Source of the DNA: Gaiellaceae bacterium
Lineage (GTDB): Bacteria; Actinomycetota; Thermoleophilia; Gaiellales; Gaiellaceae
Direction of reading: 5' to 3'
DNA: 45,473 nucleotides
NCBI GenBank assembly: GCA_035545195.1
Contig: DASZYW010000124.1
Location: forward strand, 1 to 45,473
Shown piece after piece: positions 21,638-26,861 of this stretch. Position numbers and translations under genes: made by a program. The notes beneath the pieces were generated by a model. That model made no database searches. It had not been told where the DNA came from and saw nothing but the letters and a program-made list of their open reading frames with translations. The stretch's first letter is position 1. The number at the start of each line of letters is the position of its first letter.

Positions 21638-22822
21638 ATGAAGGTGATGGTTCTCGGAGGCGACGGCTATTGCGGGTGGCCGACAGCGCTGCACCTGTCG
21701 GAACGCGGCCACGCGGTCGTGGTCGCCGACAACCTCGCGCGGCGCGCCTGGGACGAGGAGCTCGGGTCGAGCAGCCTGACGCCCATCGCCTCACTCGAGG
21801 AGCGCGTGAGTGCCTGGCACGAGGTGAGCGGCCGCGAGATCGCCGTCGAACTCGGGGACCTCCTCGACTGGGAGTTCCTCTCCGACATCGTCTCGCGCCA
21901 TCGCCCGGAGGCGATCGTCCATTACGCGGAGCAGCGCGCCGCGCCGTACTCGATGATCGACCGCGAGCACGCCGTCTTCACGCAGCACAACAACGTGATC
22001 GGGACGCTCAACGTGCTCTACGCGATCCACGAGATCGTTCCGGAATGCCATCTCGTGAAGCTCGGGACGATGGGCGAGTACGGGACGCCGAACATCGACA
22101 TCGAAGAGGGCTTCATCGAAATCGAGCACAACGGGCGCCGCGACCGCCTCCCGTTCCCGAAGCAGCCCGGCTCCTTCTACCACCTGACCAAGGTCCACGA
22201 CAGCCACAACATCGCGTTCACCTGCCGGATCTGGGGCCTGCGCGCCACCGATCTCAACCAGGGCGTCGTCTACGGGACGATCACGCCGCAGACGGAGCTC
22301 GATCCGCGCCTCGTCAACCGTTTCGACTACGACCACGTCTTCGGCACCGCCCTCAACCGGTTCTGCATCCAGGCGGCGGTCGGACACCCGCTCACGGTGT
22401 ACGGCGAGGGCGGCCAGACGCGCGGCTTCCTGGACATCCGCGACACGGTGCGCTGCATCGAGCTCGCGATCCTCAACCCGCCGGAGCAGGGCGAGTACCG
22501 CGTGTTCAACCAGTTCACCGAGCAGTTCAGCGTCGGCGAGCTGGCCGGCATGGTGGTGCACGCGGCGAAGACGCTCGGCGTCGAGGCCACGATCGAGCAC
22601 ATCGAGAATCCTCGCGTCGAGGCCGAGCACCACTACTACAACGCGAAGCACACGAAGCTGCTCGACCTGGGCCTCGAGCCGCACCTGCTCGGCGAGAGCC
22701 TGCTCGACTCGCTCGTGAACATCGCGCTCGAGCACGCCGATCGGGTCGACCACGCCCTGATCCCGCCGGCGGTGACGTGGCGACACGGGATGCGGCAATC
22801 CCACCAGCCTGCGACGGCCTGA
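21638..22822 (+). CDS. sqdB: UDP-sulfoquinovose synthase (SQD1/SqdB/Agl3 family)
   Basis: Near full-length colinearity with SQD1 as I remember it: [188 protein letters not shown] at 21638 (MKVMVLGG) was chosen, about 11 nt after GGAGGGGG. Confidence 0.93.
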
Positions 22823-22850
22823 TCGCTCCAGCAGGCGCCAAGGAGGCTTC

Positions 22851-24134
22851 GTGGCGTCGATCTGCGTGACGGGGATCTGGCATCAGGGCGCCGTCCTGTC
22901 CGCCTGCCTCTCCGAGCTCGGGCACTCCGTCGCCGGCGTCTGCGCGAACGCCGAGGAGGCCCATCGACTCGAGCTGGGCGAGCCGCCTGTCGCAGAGCCG
23001 CTGCTCGGCAGCCTGCTCGAGGCCGGCGTCGCGGCAGGGCTGCTCCGCTTCACCGACGACCTCGCCGACGGGCTCGCCGGCACCGAGTTCGTCTTCCTCT
23101 CCACCGACACCGCGGTCCGGACCGACGACTCGCCTGACACCGAGCCGCTGTTCACGCTTGCGCGCGCGATCGGGGAGGCGGCGACGGGGCCGTTCGTCCT
23201 CTGCGTGACGGCGCAGGTGCCCGTCGGGACGACCGAGCGCCTCGCGGCGGTGGCGGGCCACCGTCTCGAGGGATACGCGTACGTCCCGGAGTTCCTGCGC
23301 CTCGGCACCGCCGTGGAGAGCTTCCGGAACGCGGACCGTGTCGTTGTCGGCGCCGACGACACGACGGTTCGTGACCGAGTTGCACGTCTCTACGAAGAGC
23401 TCGGCCGGCCGATCGTCCCGACCGACGTCCGCACGGCGGAGCTGGCGAAACACGCCGCCAACGCCTTCCTGGCCACCTCGATCAGCTTCGCGAACGAGAT
23501 CGCCGACATCGCAGGAGCGTTCGGCGCCGACCCGTTCGCCGTCGGCGAGATCCTGCGGCTCGACCGGCGGATCGGCCCGCACGCCTATCTCACGCCGGGT
23601 CCCGGCTTCGCCGGGGGGACCCTCGGCCGGGAGCTACGCACGCTGCAGCAGCTCGCGAAGGAGCGCGGCCTCGAGACCCGGGTCGCGGATGCCGTCCTCG
23701 CGGTGAACGATGGCCGCGCGGGCCGGATTCTCGACCGCCTCCGCGAAGGTCTCGGCGAGCTCGCCGGCAAGCGGGTCGCCTTGCACGGGCTGACGTACAA
23801 GCCAGGCACCCCGACGCTGAGGCGCGCGGCCTCGCTCGAGCTCGCGGAGGCTCTCGACCGGGCGGGCGCATCGGTCCGCGGCTACGACCCGCTCGCAACC
23901 GCCGGCGTCGAGCCGCTGGCGGTCGAGATCGTCCGGGACGCGTACGCGGCGGCGAAGGACGCCGATGCGGTCGCCGTCCTCAACCCATGGCCGGACGGCG
24001 CCGTCGACATGCCGCGCCTGCGCGCCGCGATGCGCGGCAACCTCCTCGTCGACGCGACGGGCACGATCGGACGGGCCCCCGCCGCCGGCGCAGGCTTCCG
24101 GTACCTCTCCCTCTGGCCCGAAGGCCGCGCATGA
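22851..24134 (+). CDS. UDP-glucose/GDP-mannose dehydrogenase-family protein with degenerate active site (candidate pseudoenzyme or repurposed paralog)
   Basis: GTG start 4 nt after AAGGAGG. Family motifs seen: YVPEFLRLG, ELAKHAANAFLATSISFANEIA, GLTYKPGTPTLRRAASLEL. However, the nucleophile motif reads GFAGGTLGRE instead of GxGGxCxPKD, and the N-terminal dinucleotide motif reads TGIWHQG instead of GxGYVG. Confidence 0.75.
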   Translation: MASICVTGIWHQGAVLSACLSELGHSVAGVCANAEEAHRLELGEPPVAEPLLGSLLEAGVAAGLLRFTDDLADGLAGTEFVFLSTDTAVRTDDSPDTEPLFTLARAIGEAATGPFVLCVTAQVPVGTTERLAAVAGHRLEGYAYVPEFLRLGTAVESFRNADRVVVGADDTTVRDRVARLYEELGRPIVPTDVRTAELAKHAANAFLATSISFANEIADIAGAFGADPFAVGEILRLDRRIGPHAYLTPGPGFAGGTLGRELRTLQQLAKERGLETRVADAVLAVNDGRAGRILDRLREGLGELAGKRVALHGLTYKPGTPTLRRAASLELAEALDRAGASVRGYDPLATAGVEPLAVEIVRDAYAAAKDADAVAVLNPWPDGAVDMPRLRAAMRGNLLVDATGTIGRAPAAGAGFRYLSLWPEGRA

Positions 24135-24991: not shown

Positions 24992-26010
24992 GCGGGCTCG
25001 AGGGCGTGACCGCGATCGTCACCGGCGGCGGCCGCGGGCTCGGGCGGCAGATCTCGGTCACGCTCGCGCGCGACGGCGCGAGAGTCGTCCTCGTGGCACG
25101 CACCCGTTCCGAGCTCGAGGCGACCGCCGAGGAGATCCGCGCCGTCGGCGGCGAGGCGCTCGTCTGTCCAGGGGACGTCTCCGACCTGCCCGCCATGGAG
25201 GCCGTCGTCGATGAGGCGCTCGCCTGGGGAGACGTCGAACTCGTCGTCAACAACGCGGGCTCCCAGCAGCCGATCGGAGTCCTGACCGCCAACGATCCGG
25301 AAGCGTGGGCTCGCACGGTCCGCGTCAACCTTCTCGGCGCACTCCATCTCTGCCGGCTCCTTCTCCCGCACCTGATCGAGCGCGGCGGCGGACGGATCGT
25401 CAACGTGTCGGGTGGCGGCGCAGCCAACGCACGGCCGTACTTCAGCGCCTACGCCGCCTCGAAGGCCGCCGTCGCGCGCTTCACCGAGACGCTGGCCGAG
25501 GAGCTGCGCGGATCCGGCGTCCAGGTGAACGCGATCGCGCCGGGAGCCATGAACACGCGAATGCTGGACGAGATCCTCGCCTCCGGCGTCGAGCGGGAGA
25601 TCGCGGAGGCACAGCTCGTCTCCGGCGGCACACCCCTCGATGTGCCCGCCGGGCTGGTGCGCTTTCTCGCCACCTGCTCGCCGGCGATCACCGGGAAGCT
25701 GATCGCGGCGCCGCACGACGACTGGCAGAGTTGGGACGGCGACGTGGCTCGGATCGCGGAGACGCCCCTGCTGACGCTGCGCCGCGTCGACCCGTTCACC
25801 GTAGGCCCGCTGCTCGACACGCTGCAGGAGGCCGAGGCGTGTGCCTCGCCGCCGGCGTCGTCGGCGCGGGGGCGGTCGGCGGGAAGCGGGCCGCGGTTGC
25901 CCACGCCGCCGGCGACCGGGTCGTCGCGGTCTGCGACCTCGCCGCCGAGCGGGCGGACGCGGCGGCGGAGGCGTACGGAGCCGAGAGCTGCGCCGACTGG
26001 CGCGAGGTGA
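24988..26010 (+). CDS. short-chain dehydrogenase/reductase, paralog 2 (read-through tail overlapping next gene)
   Basis: TTG at 24988 overlaps the upstream TGA (GTG 25006 is the alternative). Motifs seen: VTGGGRGLGRQIS, NVSGGGA...YAASK, GKLIAAPHDDWQSW. Homology to paralog 1 ends near 25838, but the frame stays open to 26010. Confidence 0.7.
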   Translation: MSGLEGVTAIVTGGGRGLGRQISVTLARDGARVVLVARTRSELEATAEEIRAVGGEALVCPGDVSDLPAMEAVVDEALAWGDVELVVNNAGSQQPIGVLTANDPEAWARTVRVNLLGALHLCRLLLPHLIERGGGRIVNVSGGGAANARPYFSAYAASKAAVARFTETLAEELRGSGVQVNAIAPGAMNTRMLDEILASGVEREIAEAQLVSGGTPLDVPAGLVRFLATCSPAITGKLIAAPHDDWQSWDGDVARIAETPLLTLRRVDPFTVGPLLDTLQEAEACASPPASSARGRSAGSGPRLPTPPATGSSRSATSPPSGRTRRRRRTEPRAAPTGAR

Positions 26011-26861
26011 CGCGCCGCGACGACGTCGACGTCGTCGTCGTCTCGACGGTCAACGGCGCGATGCAGCAGGTCGTCCTCGACGCGCTCGCGCACGGCAAGC
26101 ACGTCCTCTGCGAGAAGCCGCTCGGCCGCAACCTCGAGGAGGCGACCGCGATGCGTGACGCCGCCCGCACCCACGAGCGTGTCCTCAAGGTCGGCTTCAA
26201 CCACCGCTTCCACCCCGCCGTGGCACGCGCGCACGAGCTCGCGGCCGCGGGCGCGATCGGCCCGCTGCTCTCGATCCGCGCCGCCTACGGGCACGGCGGA
26301 CGCGCCGGCTACGAGCGCGAGTGGCGCGCCGACCCCGAGCTCTCCGGAGGCGGCGAGCTCCTCGACCAGGGCGTCCACGTCCTCGACCTCTGCCGCTGGT
26401 TCCTCGGCGAGTTCTCCGAGGTCCACGGCGTCGTTGCGACGTCCTTCTGGGAGATCGCCCCGCTGGAGGACAACGGCTTCGCGCTCCTGCGCACGGCGGG
26501 CGGGCAGGTGGCGAGCCTCCACACGAGCTGGACGCAGTGGCGGAACCTCTTCCGCTTCGAGGTCTTCGGCCGGGACGGCTGGCTCGCGGTCGAGGGCCTC
26601 GGCGGCAGCTACGGCACCGAGACGCTCGTCCACGGCACCCGCCGCCCGGAGTTCGGCGTCCCCGAGGAGGAGCGCTTCGAGTTTCCCGGTGCGGACGAGT
26701 CCTGGCGGCTCGAGTGGGAGGAGCTGCGCGCCGCGATCGCGGAGGGTCGCGACCCGTCCGGCAGCGGGGACGACGGCGTCGAGGCCGCGCGGCTCGTCGA
26801 GGCGATCTACCGCTCCGCGCACGAGGGCGCCCGCGTCGAGCTCCACGAGGTGCTCGCGTGA
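25839..26861 (+). CDS. Gfo/Idh/MocA-family NAD(P)-dependent sugar oxidoreductase
   Basis: GTG at 25839 gives VCLAAGVVGAGAVGGKRA (Rossmann fold). Motifs seen: HVLCEKPLGRNLEEA (EKP motif), KVGFNHRFHP, and a C-terminal alpha/beta domain. Confidence 0.8.
   Translation: MCLAAGVVGAGAVGGKRAAVAHAAGDRVVAVCDLAAERADAAAEAYGAESCADWREVTRRDDVDVVVVSTVNGAMQQVVLDALAHGKHVLCEKPLGRNLEEATAMRDAARTHERVLKVGFNHRFHPAVARAHELAAAGAIGPLLSIRAAYGHGGRAGYEREWRADPELSGGGELLDQGVHVLDLCRWFLGEFSEVHGVVATSFWEIAPLEDNGFALLRTAGGQVASLHTSWTQWRNLFRFEVFGRDGWLAVEGLGGSYGTETLVHGTRRPEFGVPEEERFEFPGADESWRLEWEELRAAIAEGRDPSGSGDDGVEAARLVEAIYRSAHEGARVELHEVLA

Follow-up and report, generated by a model that had tools for sequence, protein, structure and literature searches.

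In a 45,473-nucleotide window of a Gaiellaceae bacterium genome (contig DASZYW010000124.1), the gene for a UDP-sulfoquinovose synthase (sqdB) stands in front of a cassette of about nine genes encoding a UGDH-fold protein, an SDR, a Gfo/Idh/MocA oxidoreductase, a nucleotidyltransferase, a GHMP kinase, an epimerase, an SIS isomerase, a transaldolase and a HAD phosphatase. We consider it probable that these are two independent sugar-supply modules abutting in one Wzx/Wzy operon, in which the genes directly after sqdB (g2–g5) act on the product of the cassette and not on UDP-sulfoquinovose. The features discussed are collected in the table.

Table. Genes of the sqdB–cassette operon and of the surrounding polysaccharide locus.
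Feature	Coordinates	Strand	Remarks
Wzz/GNVR chain-length regulator with P-loop (BY-kinase type)	8105..9808	+	
HAD-IIIA sugar-bisphosphate phosphatase of the cassette	9816..10361	+	GmhB and histidinol-phosphatase domain matches
Bac_transf priming phosphoglycosyl transferase	10470..11123	+	
Wzx-type flippase	12568..13809	-	
DegT/LegC-type sugar aminotransferase	18207..19409	-	also in some cassette loci
u1, GT4 divergent from sqdB	20340..21476	-	one candidate sulfoquinovosyltransferase
sqdB, UDP-sulfoquinovose synthase	21638..22822	+	394 aa; alternative upstream ATG 21590
g2, UGDH-fold protein, distinct subfamily	22851..24134	+	first cassette gene
g3, classical SDR	24131..24991	+	beside g2 in 18/18 other cassette loci (L008–L025)
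g4, second SDR, g3 paralog	24988..26010	+	orthologs in L010 and L013
g5, Gfo/Idh/MocA oxidoreductase, cassette member	25839..26861	+	syntenic in most cassette loci
g6, sugar-1-phosphate nucleotidyltransferase	26858..27583	+	best matches are guanylyltransferases
g7, GHMP sugar kinase, HddA-like	27580..28563	+	under equivalog cut-off
g8, NDP-sugar epimerase with internal insertion	28560..29678	+	
g9, SIS-domain ketose-phosphate isomerase	29629..30279	+	distant GmhA relative
g10, small transaldolase	30309..31127	+	TIGR02134, above cut-off
g11, GT4 glycosyltransferase	31132..32340	+	60% identity in L001, just 40% in L171
g12, SDR-type epimerase/reductase fused to Gfo/Idh/MocA domain	32337..34400	+	
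g13, GT2 glycosyltransferase	34397..35269	+	co-travels with cassette; 70% identity in L171
g14, methyltransferase–GT4 (WcaI-like) fusion	35266..37389	+	co-travels with cassette
Wzy_C polymerase/ligase-like protein with TPR	37365..39338	-	
CpsB/CapC-type phosphatase	41325..42116	+	

The locus is of the Wzx/Wzy surface polysaccharide type. Wzx, Wzy_C with TPR, Wzz/BY-kinase, Bac_transf and the CpsB phosphatase are all present, in agreement with the original prediction of a non-photosynthetic-type surface-glycan locus, and the genes after sqdB are those it had named (a UGDH homolog, two paralogous SDRs and a Gfo/Idh/MocA oxidoreductase). The run of start-stop overlaps that had been described from sqdB to g14 holds at most junctions from g2 onwards, where neighbouring genes overlap by 4 nt, but there are five exceptions. 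sqdB and g2 are separated by a 28-nt gap with an AAGGAGG site, in which a terminator was looked for and none was found. g4 and g5 overlap by 172 nt as open reading frames; homology of g4 stops near 25825, and in the frame plot its reading frame continues over this distance into g5. The overlap of g8 and g9 is about 50 nt (about 11 nt if g9 starts at the alternative GTG 29668), and gaps of about 30 nt and 4 nt separate g9 from g10 and g10 from g11, respectively. The GC3 frame plot gives a coding signal for sqdB and every downstream gene, and these genes apparently form one operon.

Judged by its sequence, the sqdB product is a true SQD1/SqdB ortholog, as had been proposed. All nine SQD1/SqdB motifs quoted earlier are found in its translation, and it aligns without gaps to A. 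thaliana SQD1 (PDB 1qrr, residues 2–383; 606 bits), the two sharing 66.4% identity across 381 aa. The catalytic residues are all intact, with H96, R101, T145, M146, Y182, H183 and K186 (7/7) retained relative to SQD1. The profile NF041015 matches SqdB over its full length with 498 bits, while SQD1 itself scores lower (485 bits). SQD1 and Agl3 are established UDP-sulfoquinovose-forming enzymes, and because of the identity to SQD1 and the intact catalytic residues, SqdB would convert UDP-glucose and sulfite into UDP-sulfoquinovose, by itself constituting the first module. Agl3 and SQD1 yield UDP-glucose-5,6-ene when sulfite is missing (PMC8987622, PMC4388408), so that SqdB might in vivo act without sulfite as a UDP-glucose 5,6-dehydratase supplying a 6-deoxy or other sugar pathway. 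This is highly improbable, as every catalytic and sulfite-pathway residue is retained and the conservation among actinobacterial orthologs (77–86% identity) fits the canonical reaction.

One line of evidence for a separate cassette is its distribution. g2 is syntenic with g3, g5, g6, g7, g8, g9 and g10 in 18 other genome loci (L008–L025) from about seven phyla (Chloroflexota, Acidobacteriota, Dormiibacterota, Eisenbacteria, Gemmatimonadota, Aminicenantes and Actinomycetota). None of these 18 loci has a SqdB match within 10 kb of the cassette, the range of the scan, and SqdB may lie farther off or elsewhere in those genomes. Conversely, 85 other SqdB loci were examined, 60 of them with at least five called genes, and the cassette families occur in none. 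The cassette is thus syntenic without SqdB while the other SqdB loci lack the cassette, which argues that the genes after sqdB act on the cassette's own product. Two sister loci, L171 and L010, keep the operon, but an unrelated epimerase of 331–341 aa stands in the place of SqdB, which is the occupant of a variable first operon slot that holds a different SDR enzyme there. The window and L001 share the sqdB–cassette junction, and because they are close relatives, we count it as one evolutionary event.

These observations do not bear out the original prediction that SqdB heads a tailoring cassette, in which g2–g5 oxidise, reduce or epimerise UDP-sulfoquinovose before it enters a glycan. The genes do lie on the same strand, directly adjacent to sqdB and probably co-transcribed with it, and a Cys-less UGDH fold might bind a UDP-sugar bearing a C6 anion. 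Such tailoring is nevertheless very unlikely, since the same four families, with the same motifs, recur in the SqdB-free loci of other phyla amid NDP-sugar genes, are missing from every other SqdB locus examined, and belong in L171 and L010 to operons that exist without SqdB. Short of proof, synteny argues against UDP-sulfoquinovose as the cassette substrate; g2–g5 instead open a separate, conserved cassette, which would start from a ketose phosphate and make a nucleotide sugar of its own.

The first protein of this cassette, g2, is a three-domain UDP-glucose/GDP-mannose-dehydrogenase homolog that had been called catalytically degenerate. It shares the three-domain fold of UGDH/Ugd/TuaD and retains two catalytic residues of the central helix, Lys and Asn, but the catalytic Cys is replaced by Thr, the next K-D by R-E/D, and the middle Gly of GxGxxG by Trp (G-I-W-H-Q-G in g2). 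These differences are conserved subfamily-wide, and the motifs G-x-W-H-[QL]-G, K-H-x-x-N and G-G-T-L-x-R-[DE] are conserved in 120 homologs, so that g2 belongs to a large family and is not decayed. With the Cys nucleophile, K-D and GxGxxG replaced, an assignment as UDP-glucose 6-dehydrogenase was rejected, and on these residues g2 cannot perform the classical four-electron oxidation. Three unrelated proteins (P0275, P0284 and P0334) carry the g2 domain as a fusion with an adh_short SDR. Both the conserved motifs and these fusions add to the case for an independent cassette.

Among the remaining members, the paralogs g3 and g4 share 47% identity, and g8 is the most conserved cassette gene (61–74% identity across phyla). 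In the loci L008–L025, the SIS and transaldolase genes flank a gene for a GmhB-like phosphatase. Its ortholog in the window, 54% identical to the phosphatase at that position in L014, has moved to a site beside the priming transferase. Together with this phosphatase, g2–g10 would form the second module. The transaldolase, SIS isomerase, GHMP kinase, HAD phosphatase and nucleotidyltransferase are predicted to turn a ketose phosphate into an NDP-activated higher-carbon sugar (C7 or C8), with GDP as the probable nucleotide, which would then be remodelled by the g8 epimerase, the UGDH-fold/SDR pair (g2 with g3/g4) and the g5 oxidoreductase. g13 and g14 also lie downstream of the cassette in L170 and L171, where g14 (62–63% identity) adjoins the transaldolase gene; they would probably transfer and methylate the cassette sugar.

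The fusion protein g12 may instead be the enzyme that modifies sulfoquinovose before transfer, for example by C4 epimerisation to sulfofucose or by oxidation or reduction. It occurs only where SqdB and the cassette are found together, in the window and L001, and is absent from the SqdB-less sisters L171 and L010, and 6-C-sulfofucose, the biosynthesis of which is unknown, occurs in archaeal N-glycans (PMC12421959). This co-occurrence, however, comes from two closely related genomes and a single event, and g12 is missing from all other SqdB loci, making such a role quite unlikely.

For sulfoquinovose, a glycan fate, as originally proposed, is the most economical reading. A glycosyltransferase of the locus would probably place it onto an undecaprenyl-linked repeat unit, for which Bac_transf would be the priming enzyme, Wzx the flippase and Wzy the polymerase. 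The short sqdB–g2 gap, which has a ribosome-binding site and lacks a terminator, speaks for this fate. SqdB orthologs with 77–82% identity are found in other glycan loci of related Thermoleophilia and Rubrobacter, with an ABC transporter, GT2 and GtrA (L003), GT-C and GT2-DUF2304 (L005 and L088), GT92, GT14 and Wzz (L006 and L007), or Wzy, Bac_transf and GT4 (L089) as partners. These loci make it plausible that bacteria build sulfoquinovose into an envelope glycan; our literature search found no report of this.

The classical fate of UDP-sulfoquinovose is the lipid SQDG, and the operon placement of sqdB could be incidental or regulatory if a GT4 such as u1 made an SQDG-like membrane glycolipid. 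The original prediction had recognised no SqdX/SqdD-type partner. Indeed, no glycosyltransferase is conserved beside SqdB across loci, but SqdX/SQD2 belong to the GT4 family and the locus has five GT4 genes, so a SqdX-type partner with a lipid acceptor is possible at family level. A GT4 is divergent from sqdB both here and in L089, and a GT21/GT2 lipid-type transferase adjoins sqdB in many soil-metagenome SqdB loci. The two divergent GT4s, however, are not orthologs, all Thermoleophilia and Rubrobacter loci examined have polymer- or glycoconjugate-assembly neighbours, and no above-cut-off NCBIfam match links any glycosyltransferase here to lipid glycosylation. We therefore regard a lipid fate as unlikely. 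u1 itself shares just 37–38% identity with its counterparts in L010 and L171, compared with 55–74% for the neighbouring genes there.

Compared with the SQDG pathway of plants, cyanobacteria, Rhodobacter and Sinorhizobium, SqdB here belongs to the same family and very probably catalyses the same reaction, sharing the GxxGxxG NAD motif, the T-M-G...Y-x3-K signature and the His and Arg residues with SQD1 (PMC4388408; PMC8987622). Its gene, in contrast, has no conserved SqdX/SQD2, SqdD, SqdC or SqdA neighbour and lies inside a Wzx/Wzy polysaccharide operon of a probably non-phototrophic soil actinobacterium. Delivery of a sulfosugar donor to a surface glycan, as proposed here, also occurs in the Sulfolobus acidocaldarius N-glycan (sulfoquinovose from Agl3, which shares only about 40% identity with SQD1; PMC4388408) and the Thermoplasma sulfofucose N-glycan. 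Those systems are archaeal and rely on dolichol- and AglB-dependent protein N-glycosylation, whereas the window encodes a bacterial Wzx/Wzy system that assembles a polymer and includes a BY-kinase.

In its enzyme families, the cassette is similar to the GDP-octose pathway of lincomycin biosynthesis. LmbL is UGDH-like and LmbZ Gfo/Idh/MocA-like, and we know of no Lmb counterpart to the SDR g3, which in the cassette always accompanies the UGDH-fold protein. The lincosamide pathway comprises the LmbR transaldolase, LmbN isomerase, LmbP kinase, LmbK phosphatase and LmbO nucleotidyltransferase, followed by the LmbM epimerase, LmbL dehydrogenase, LmbZ/CcbZ oxidoreductase and LmbS aminotransferase (PMC4351081, PMC12945683). 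Compared by family only, these enzyme types pair one-to-one with g2–g10, the phosphatase and the DegT gene. The Lmb genes, however, form an antibiotic cluster rather than a polysaccharide locus, and an aminotransferase is present in some cassette loci only. With the GDP-D-glycero-alpha-D-manno-heptose pathway of capsules and S-layer glycans (GmhA, HddA, GmhB, HddC), the cassette has four enzyme families in common, in the same logical order of isomerase, GHMP kinase, HAD phosphatase and nucleotidyltransferase. Against the NCBIfam equivalog cut-offs, these four (with the L014 ortholog as phosphatase) score 41 of 209, 153 of 600, 129 of 178 and 71 of 300, all far below, and the cassette always adds a transaldolase, a UGDH-fold protein and an SDR, and usually a Gfo/Idh/MocA oxidoreductase.

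The product of sqdB can be assigned with high confidence, from its sequence, as a UDP-sulfoquinovose synthase. It matches Arabidopsis SQD1 (PDB 1qrr) with 606 bits over residues 2–383, at 66.4% identity across 381 aa with 0 gaps, and all nine SQD1/SqdB motifs quoted in the original prediction are found in its translation. Thr145, Met146, Tyr182, His183, Lys186, Arg101 and the His preceding the latter are all kept (aligned as T144, M145, Y181, H182, K185, R100 and H95). Thr145, Tyr182 and Lys186 are catalytic and lie in the [ST]MG...Yx3K signature, while the equivalents of the His and Arg101 were shown to be essential in Agl3 (PMC4388408, PMC8987622). 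The NCBIfam model NF041015 matches the protein over its full length with 497.9 bits, under its equivalog cut-off of 575 bits. This score does not decide membership, because archetypal SQD1 itself scores 484.7 bits, likewise under the cut-off, which leaves out genuine plant/bacterial-clade members. The enzyme adds a member to a known family; its nearest homologs are in Gaiellaceae (86% identity), Solirubrobacterales (80%) and Rubrobacter (77–78%), so the window probably derives from an actinobacterium of the class Thermoleophilia. Homologs of sqdB in non-photosynthetic bacteria were already noted in 2015 (PMC4388408).

Because the window has a G+C content of ~71%, genes were mapped by GC3 frame plot and start-site inspection, and the map was confirmed with a start-trimming gene caller. 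The genes around sqdB make up a Wzx/Wzy polysaccharide locus of Gram-positive type, in which domain matches identify a priming phosphoglycosyl transferase, a flippase, a polymerase and a chain-length regulator/kinase. It further contains five GT4 genes, one GT2, three methyltransferase genes, a methyltransferase–GT4 fusion and a DegT aminotransferase. A gap of 28 nt, with an AAGGAGG site and nothing resembling a terminator, separates sqdB from g2, the first of the genes on its 3′ side (g2–g14), and a scan for promoters and terminators around sqdB found none. From g2 to g14, most junctions are 4-nt overlaps, with longer overlaps at g4–g5 and g8–g9 and short gaps at g9–g10 and g10–g11.

Coordinates of features in the window and in two comparison loci
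Feature	Sequence	Position	Domain match or description
FkbH-domain protein	window	5465..7363	HAD-IIIC; TIGR01686, 220 bits; 632 aa
Wzz/BY-kinase	window	8105..9808	Wzz/GNVR with P-loop
Cassette phosphatase	window	9816..10361	HAD phosphatase
Priming phosphoglycosyl transferase	window	10470..11123	Bac_transf
484-aa protein	window	11117..12571	
Wzx flippase	window	12568..13809	Polysacc_synt_3
Divergent GT4	window	20340..21476 (-)	GT4
sqdB	window	21638..22822	UDP-sulfoquinovose synthase family
g2–g14	window	22851..37389	genes 3′ of sqdB
g2	window	22851..24134	UGDH fold
g4	window	24988..26010	SDR
g5	window	25839..26861	Gfo/Idh/MocA
g12	window	32337..34400	SDR-type epimerase/reductase + Gfo/Idh/MocA fusion
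Wzy_C+TPR	window	37365..39338	Wzy_C
CpsB phosphatase	window	41325..42116	CpsB
RmlA/RmlB-like pair	window	42131..43872	nucleotidyltransferase; 4,6-dehydratase-type SDR
Split transketolase	L003	5429..7188	N-terminal part; pyrimidine-binding/C-terminal parts
Phosphatase–priming transferase fusion	L001	1..969	Hydrolase + Bac_transf

Three further features lie in or next to the locus. At its right edge, a second nucleotidyltransferase is paired with a 4,6-dehydratase-type SDR; this RmlA/RmlB-like pair implies that nucleotide sugars reach the polymer of the locus by at least three routes. Just upstream of the locus, a protein with an FkbH domain is encoded; FkbH-type enzymes load glyceryl units onto carrier proteins. 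The gene for a 484-aa protein that is shared only with L001, a Gaiellaceae MAG (39% identity), lies between Wzx and the priming transferase. No Pfam match was found for this product, in a scan that covered the antisense candidate, and it is possibly another membrane protein of polymerase- or ligase-like type.

The four genes that follow sqdB encode a UGDH-fold protein (g2), two paralogous SDRs (g3 and g4, 47% identical) and a Gfo/Idh/MocA enzyme (g5), and had been predicted to tailor the SqdB product. This is not borne out by their distribution. A g2-homolog profile retrieved 18 genome loci from Chloroflexota, Acidobacteriota, Dormiibacterota, Eisenbacteria, Gemmatimonadota, Aminicenantes and Actinomycetota, with g2 counterparts that are 45–54% identical. 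In every one of these loci g3 adjoins g2. Synteny of g2 extends to g5 (in most loci), g6 (nucleotidyltransferase), g7 (GHMP kinase), g8 (epimerase, 61–70% identical), g9 (SIS isomerase) and g10 (small transaldolase), and no SqdB match lies within 10 kb of the cassette in any of the 18. Most of them also encode a GmhB/histidinol-phosphatase-type HAD phosphatase between the SIS and transaldolase genes. Its window ortholog (54% identity) is encoded directly before the Bac_transf priming transferase, and the annotation of L001 has both as a single fused protein. Of 87 SqdB loci (80 from soil metagenomes, six from relatives and the window), only two contain any of the cassette families: the window and L001, whose SqdB is 86% identical to that of the window. 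These two represent a single evolutionary event.

Two sister loci, L171 and L010 (the latter from Gaiellaceae), keep the same operon without SqdB; identities of L171 to the window are 53% for g2, 60% for g3, 74% for g8, 60% for g10, 70% for g13 (a GT2) and 63% for g14 (the methyltransferase–GT4 fusion). Each of them has an SDR epimerase of 331–341 aa in the position before g2; the two epimerases are 62% identical, and no ortholog of them was found in the window. Since the four genes are syntenic without SqdB elsewhere, absent from the other SqdB loci and kept in SqdB-less sister operons, synteny indicates that they form the head of a self-contained cassette and are not SqdB accessories. Genomes with the cassette could nevertheless encode SqdB at another site.

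The description of g2 as catalytically degenerate does not hold either, as far as decay is concerned. The protein has all three UGDH domains, with G-G-T-L-G-R-E replacing the UGDH motif G-G-S-C-x-P-K-D and G-I-W-H-Q-G replacing G-x-G-x-x-G, so that neither the catalytic Cys of GGxCxxKD nor the N-terminal GxGxxG NAD site is found. A set of 120 homologs (45–66% identity) essentially retains both variant motifs, which argues against decay, and the family can be recognized by the signature G-x-W-H-[QL]-G, K-H-x-x-N and G-G-T-L-x-R-[DE]. In a search of 1.84 billion cluster representatives with g2, the W-H / K-H-x-x-N / G-G-T-L-x-R-[DE] pattern was present in ~90 of the best 150 50%-identity cluster representatives; this Cys-less UGDH-fold family is a large one. 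In three representatives (P0275, P0284 and P0334), the g2-type domain is fused, in either order, to a classical SDR (adh_short), and these fusions suggest that the Cys-less UGDH-fold protein and the SDR function as one unit. The g4 ORF continues for ~60 low-complexity codons past the end of homology, resulting in a 172-nt overlap with g5. The counterparts of g4 and g5 in L010 do not overlap; in the window, the stop codon may have been lost, the sequence may contain an error, or the long overlap may be genuine.

Where, then, would the sulfoquinovose go? Sequence identity and synteny are what was observed; everything beyond them, including the fates discussed here, we infer. In every readable Thermoleophilia or Rubrobacter context, SqdB lies among glycan-assembly genes, with different partners each time: a Wzm/Wzt ABC transporter, GT2s, GtrA and a split transketolase (L003); a PMT_2/TMEM260-type GT-C, a GT2–DUF2304 protein and a flippase (L005 and L088); GT92, a GT14 'Branch' protein, Wzz, an ABC exporter and a sulfotransferase (L006 and L007); or Bac_transf, two GT4s and two Wzy-like proteins (L089). 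This variability fits a role of SqdB as a portable donor-supply gene for different glycans. Given where sqdB lies in the operon, incorporation of the sugar into the polymer of this locus is its most likely fate. A less likely, though conceivable, alternative is a lipid fate via a GT4. The SQDG sulfolipid pathway uses a dedicated sulfoquinovosyltransferase, SqdX/SQD2 or SqdD with SqdC/SqdA; the window encodes five GT4s, none of which is conserved beside SqdB across loci. The general idea of the original prediction, sulfoquinovose in a bacterial envelope glycan, is kept as plausible but unproven, whereas its specific mechanism through g2–g5 is rejected, the cassette being independent.

A comparison of glycosyltransferases across the SqdB loci found none conserved with SqdB. 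Both the window and L089 encode a GT4 divergently from sqdB; these two were considered as a shared sulfoquinovosyltransferase, and are not orthologs. The GT4 domain of g14 (47% identity in L089) was rejected as an SqdB partner and assigned to the cassette, because its closest homologs adjoin the cassette transaldolase gene in SqdB-less loci. Epimerases near SqdB elsewhere are generic, with mutual identities of 30–45%. In L003 (Gaiellaceae), the split transketolase is encoded next to SqdB in an ABC-transporter-type glycan locus; split transketolases occur in branched-chain or two-carbon-extended sugar pathways. The g12 fusion (687–705 aa) is found only in the two loci with both SqdB and the cassette, and is missing from L171 and L010. 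On the basis of this one co-occurrence event, g12 may be a genuine UDP-sulfoquinovose-modifying enzyme.

The 80 soil loci (SqdB 65–73% identical) have a recurrent neighborhood that is absent from the window (e.g. L119, L126, L130 and L151), in the order AsnB-like asparagine synthase, PMT/PMT_2 GT-C, SqdB, GT21/GT2 and two EamA-like proteins of ~124 aa. The GT-C (~613 aa) occurs in 49 of the 87 SqdB loci and the GT21/GT2 (~392 aa) in 40. This arrangement resembles an Arn-type system, with a polyprenyl-phosphate-sugar synthase, a small flippase and a GT-C. By analogy, it would point to an envelope acceptor that is sulfoquinovosylated in the periplasm or, instead, to the GT21 as a sulfoquinovosyl-lipid synthase.

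To our knowledge, sulfoquinovose is usually taken as a product of phototrophs, in the form of SQDG, with Sulfolobus-type archaeal glycans as its sole other source. A 2025 paper describes sulfosugars in algal and archaeal glycoconjugates (PMC12421959). Our literature search turned up no relevant account of sulfoquinovose in polysaccharides of bacteria, nor any from Thermoleophilia or Rubrobacter, and the new part would be the use of SqdB for a bacterial Wzx/Wzy polysaccharide. A broader proposal, which we consider possible though on balance doubtful, is that Gaiellaceae and their relatives, deep-branching soil Actinomycetota, make an anionic exopolysaccharide containing both sulfoquinovose, a C-sulfonated sugar known to date only from lipids and archaeal N-glycans, and a lincosamine-like C8 (or unusual C7) sugar, the latter from a hitherto unrecognized cassette of at least seven phyla. 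SqdB would then be a mobile 'sugar-supply' gene across many envelope-glycan systems, and such bacteria would be a hidden soil source of sulfosugars that does not depend on photosynthesis. If the abundant soil Thermoleophilia, Rubrobacteria and the bacteria of the 80 soil loci do place sulfoquinovose in envelope glycans, they would provide a non-photosynthetic bacterial organosulfonate pool feeding sulfoglycolytic soil organisms, and their polymers would constitute a new type of strongly acidic polysaccharide in bacteria.

As for the cassette itself, its first half is organized like a nucleotide-heptose pathway, with a ketose-phosphate isomerase, an anomeric kinase, a phosphatase and a nucleotidyltransferase, and the transaldolase is an integral member. 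The predicted product would be a GDP-linked higher-carbon sugar, with its side chain remodeled by g8, g2 with g3 (or g4) and g5, and g13 and g14 would act in its transfer and O-methylation. This conserved nucleotide-sugar set around a Cys-less UGDH-fold/SDR core is a tractable target for finding a new higher-carbon sugar of surface polymers. It differs from the GDP-D-glycero-alpha-D-manno-heptose pathway in that its members score far under the equivalog cut-offs of GmhA (41 versus 209), HddA (153 versus 600) and HddC (71 versus 300), as does the L014 ortholog of the phosphatase for GmhB (129 versus 178). Another known system is the Lmb/Ccb GDP-octose pathway, in which LmbL is UGDH-like and LmbZ Gfo/Idh/MocA-like; we know of no Lmb counterpart of the constant g2–g3 pairing. 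Searches of the PDB found no Lmb structures, tblastn against plasmids, in search of Lmb/Ccb, returned only canonical UGDHs at <40% identity, and the names of ten high-GC cluster representatives from the g2 search, checked for Lmb/Ccb, were generic only. GDP-octose is formed by the LmbR/N/P/K/O/M/L/Z/S set, which also turns it into GDP-lincosamide (PMC4351081 Table 2; PMC12945683 Table 1). Compared by enzyme type, the window matches this set in all nine functions, encoding a transaldolase, an isomerase, a kinase, a phosphatase, a nucleotidyltransferase, an epimerase, a dehydrogenase, an NAD(P) oxidoreductase and an aminotransferase.
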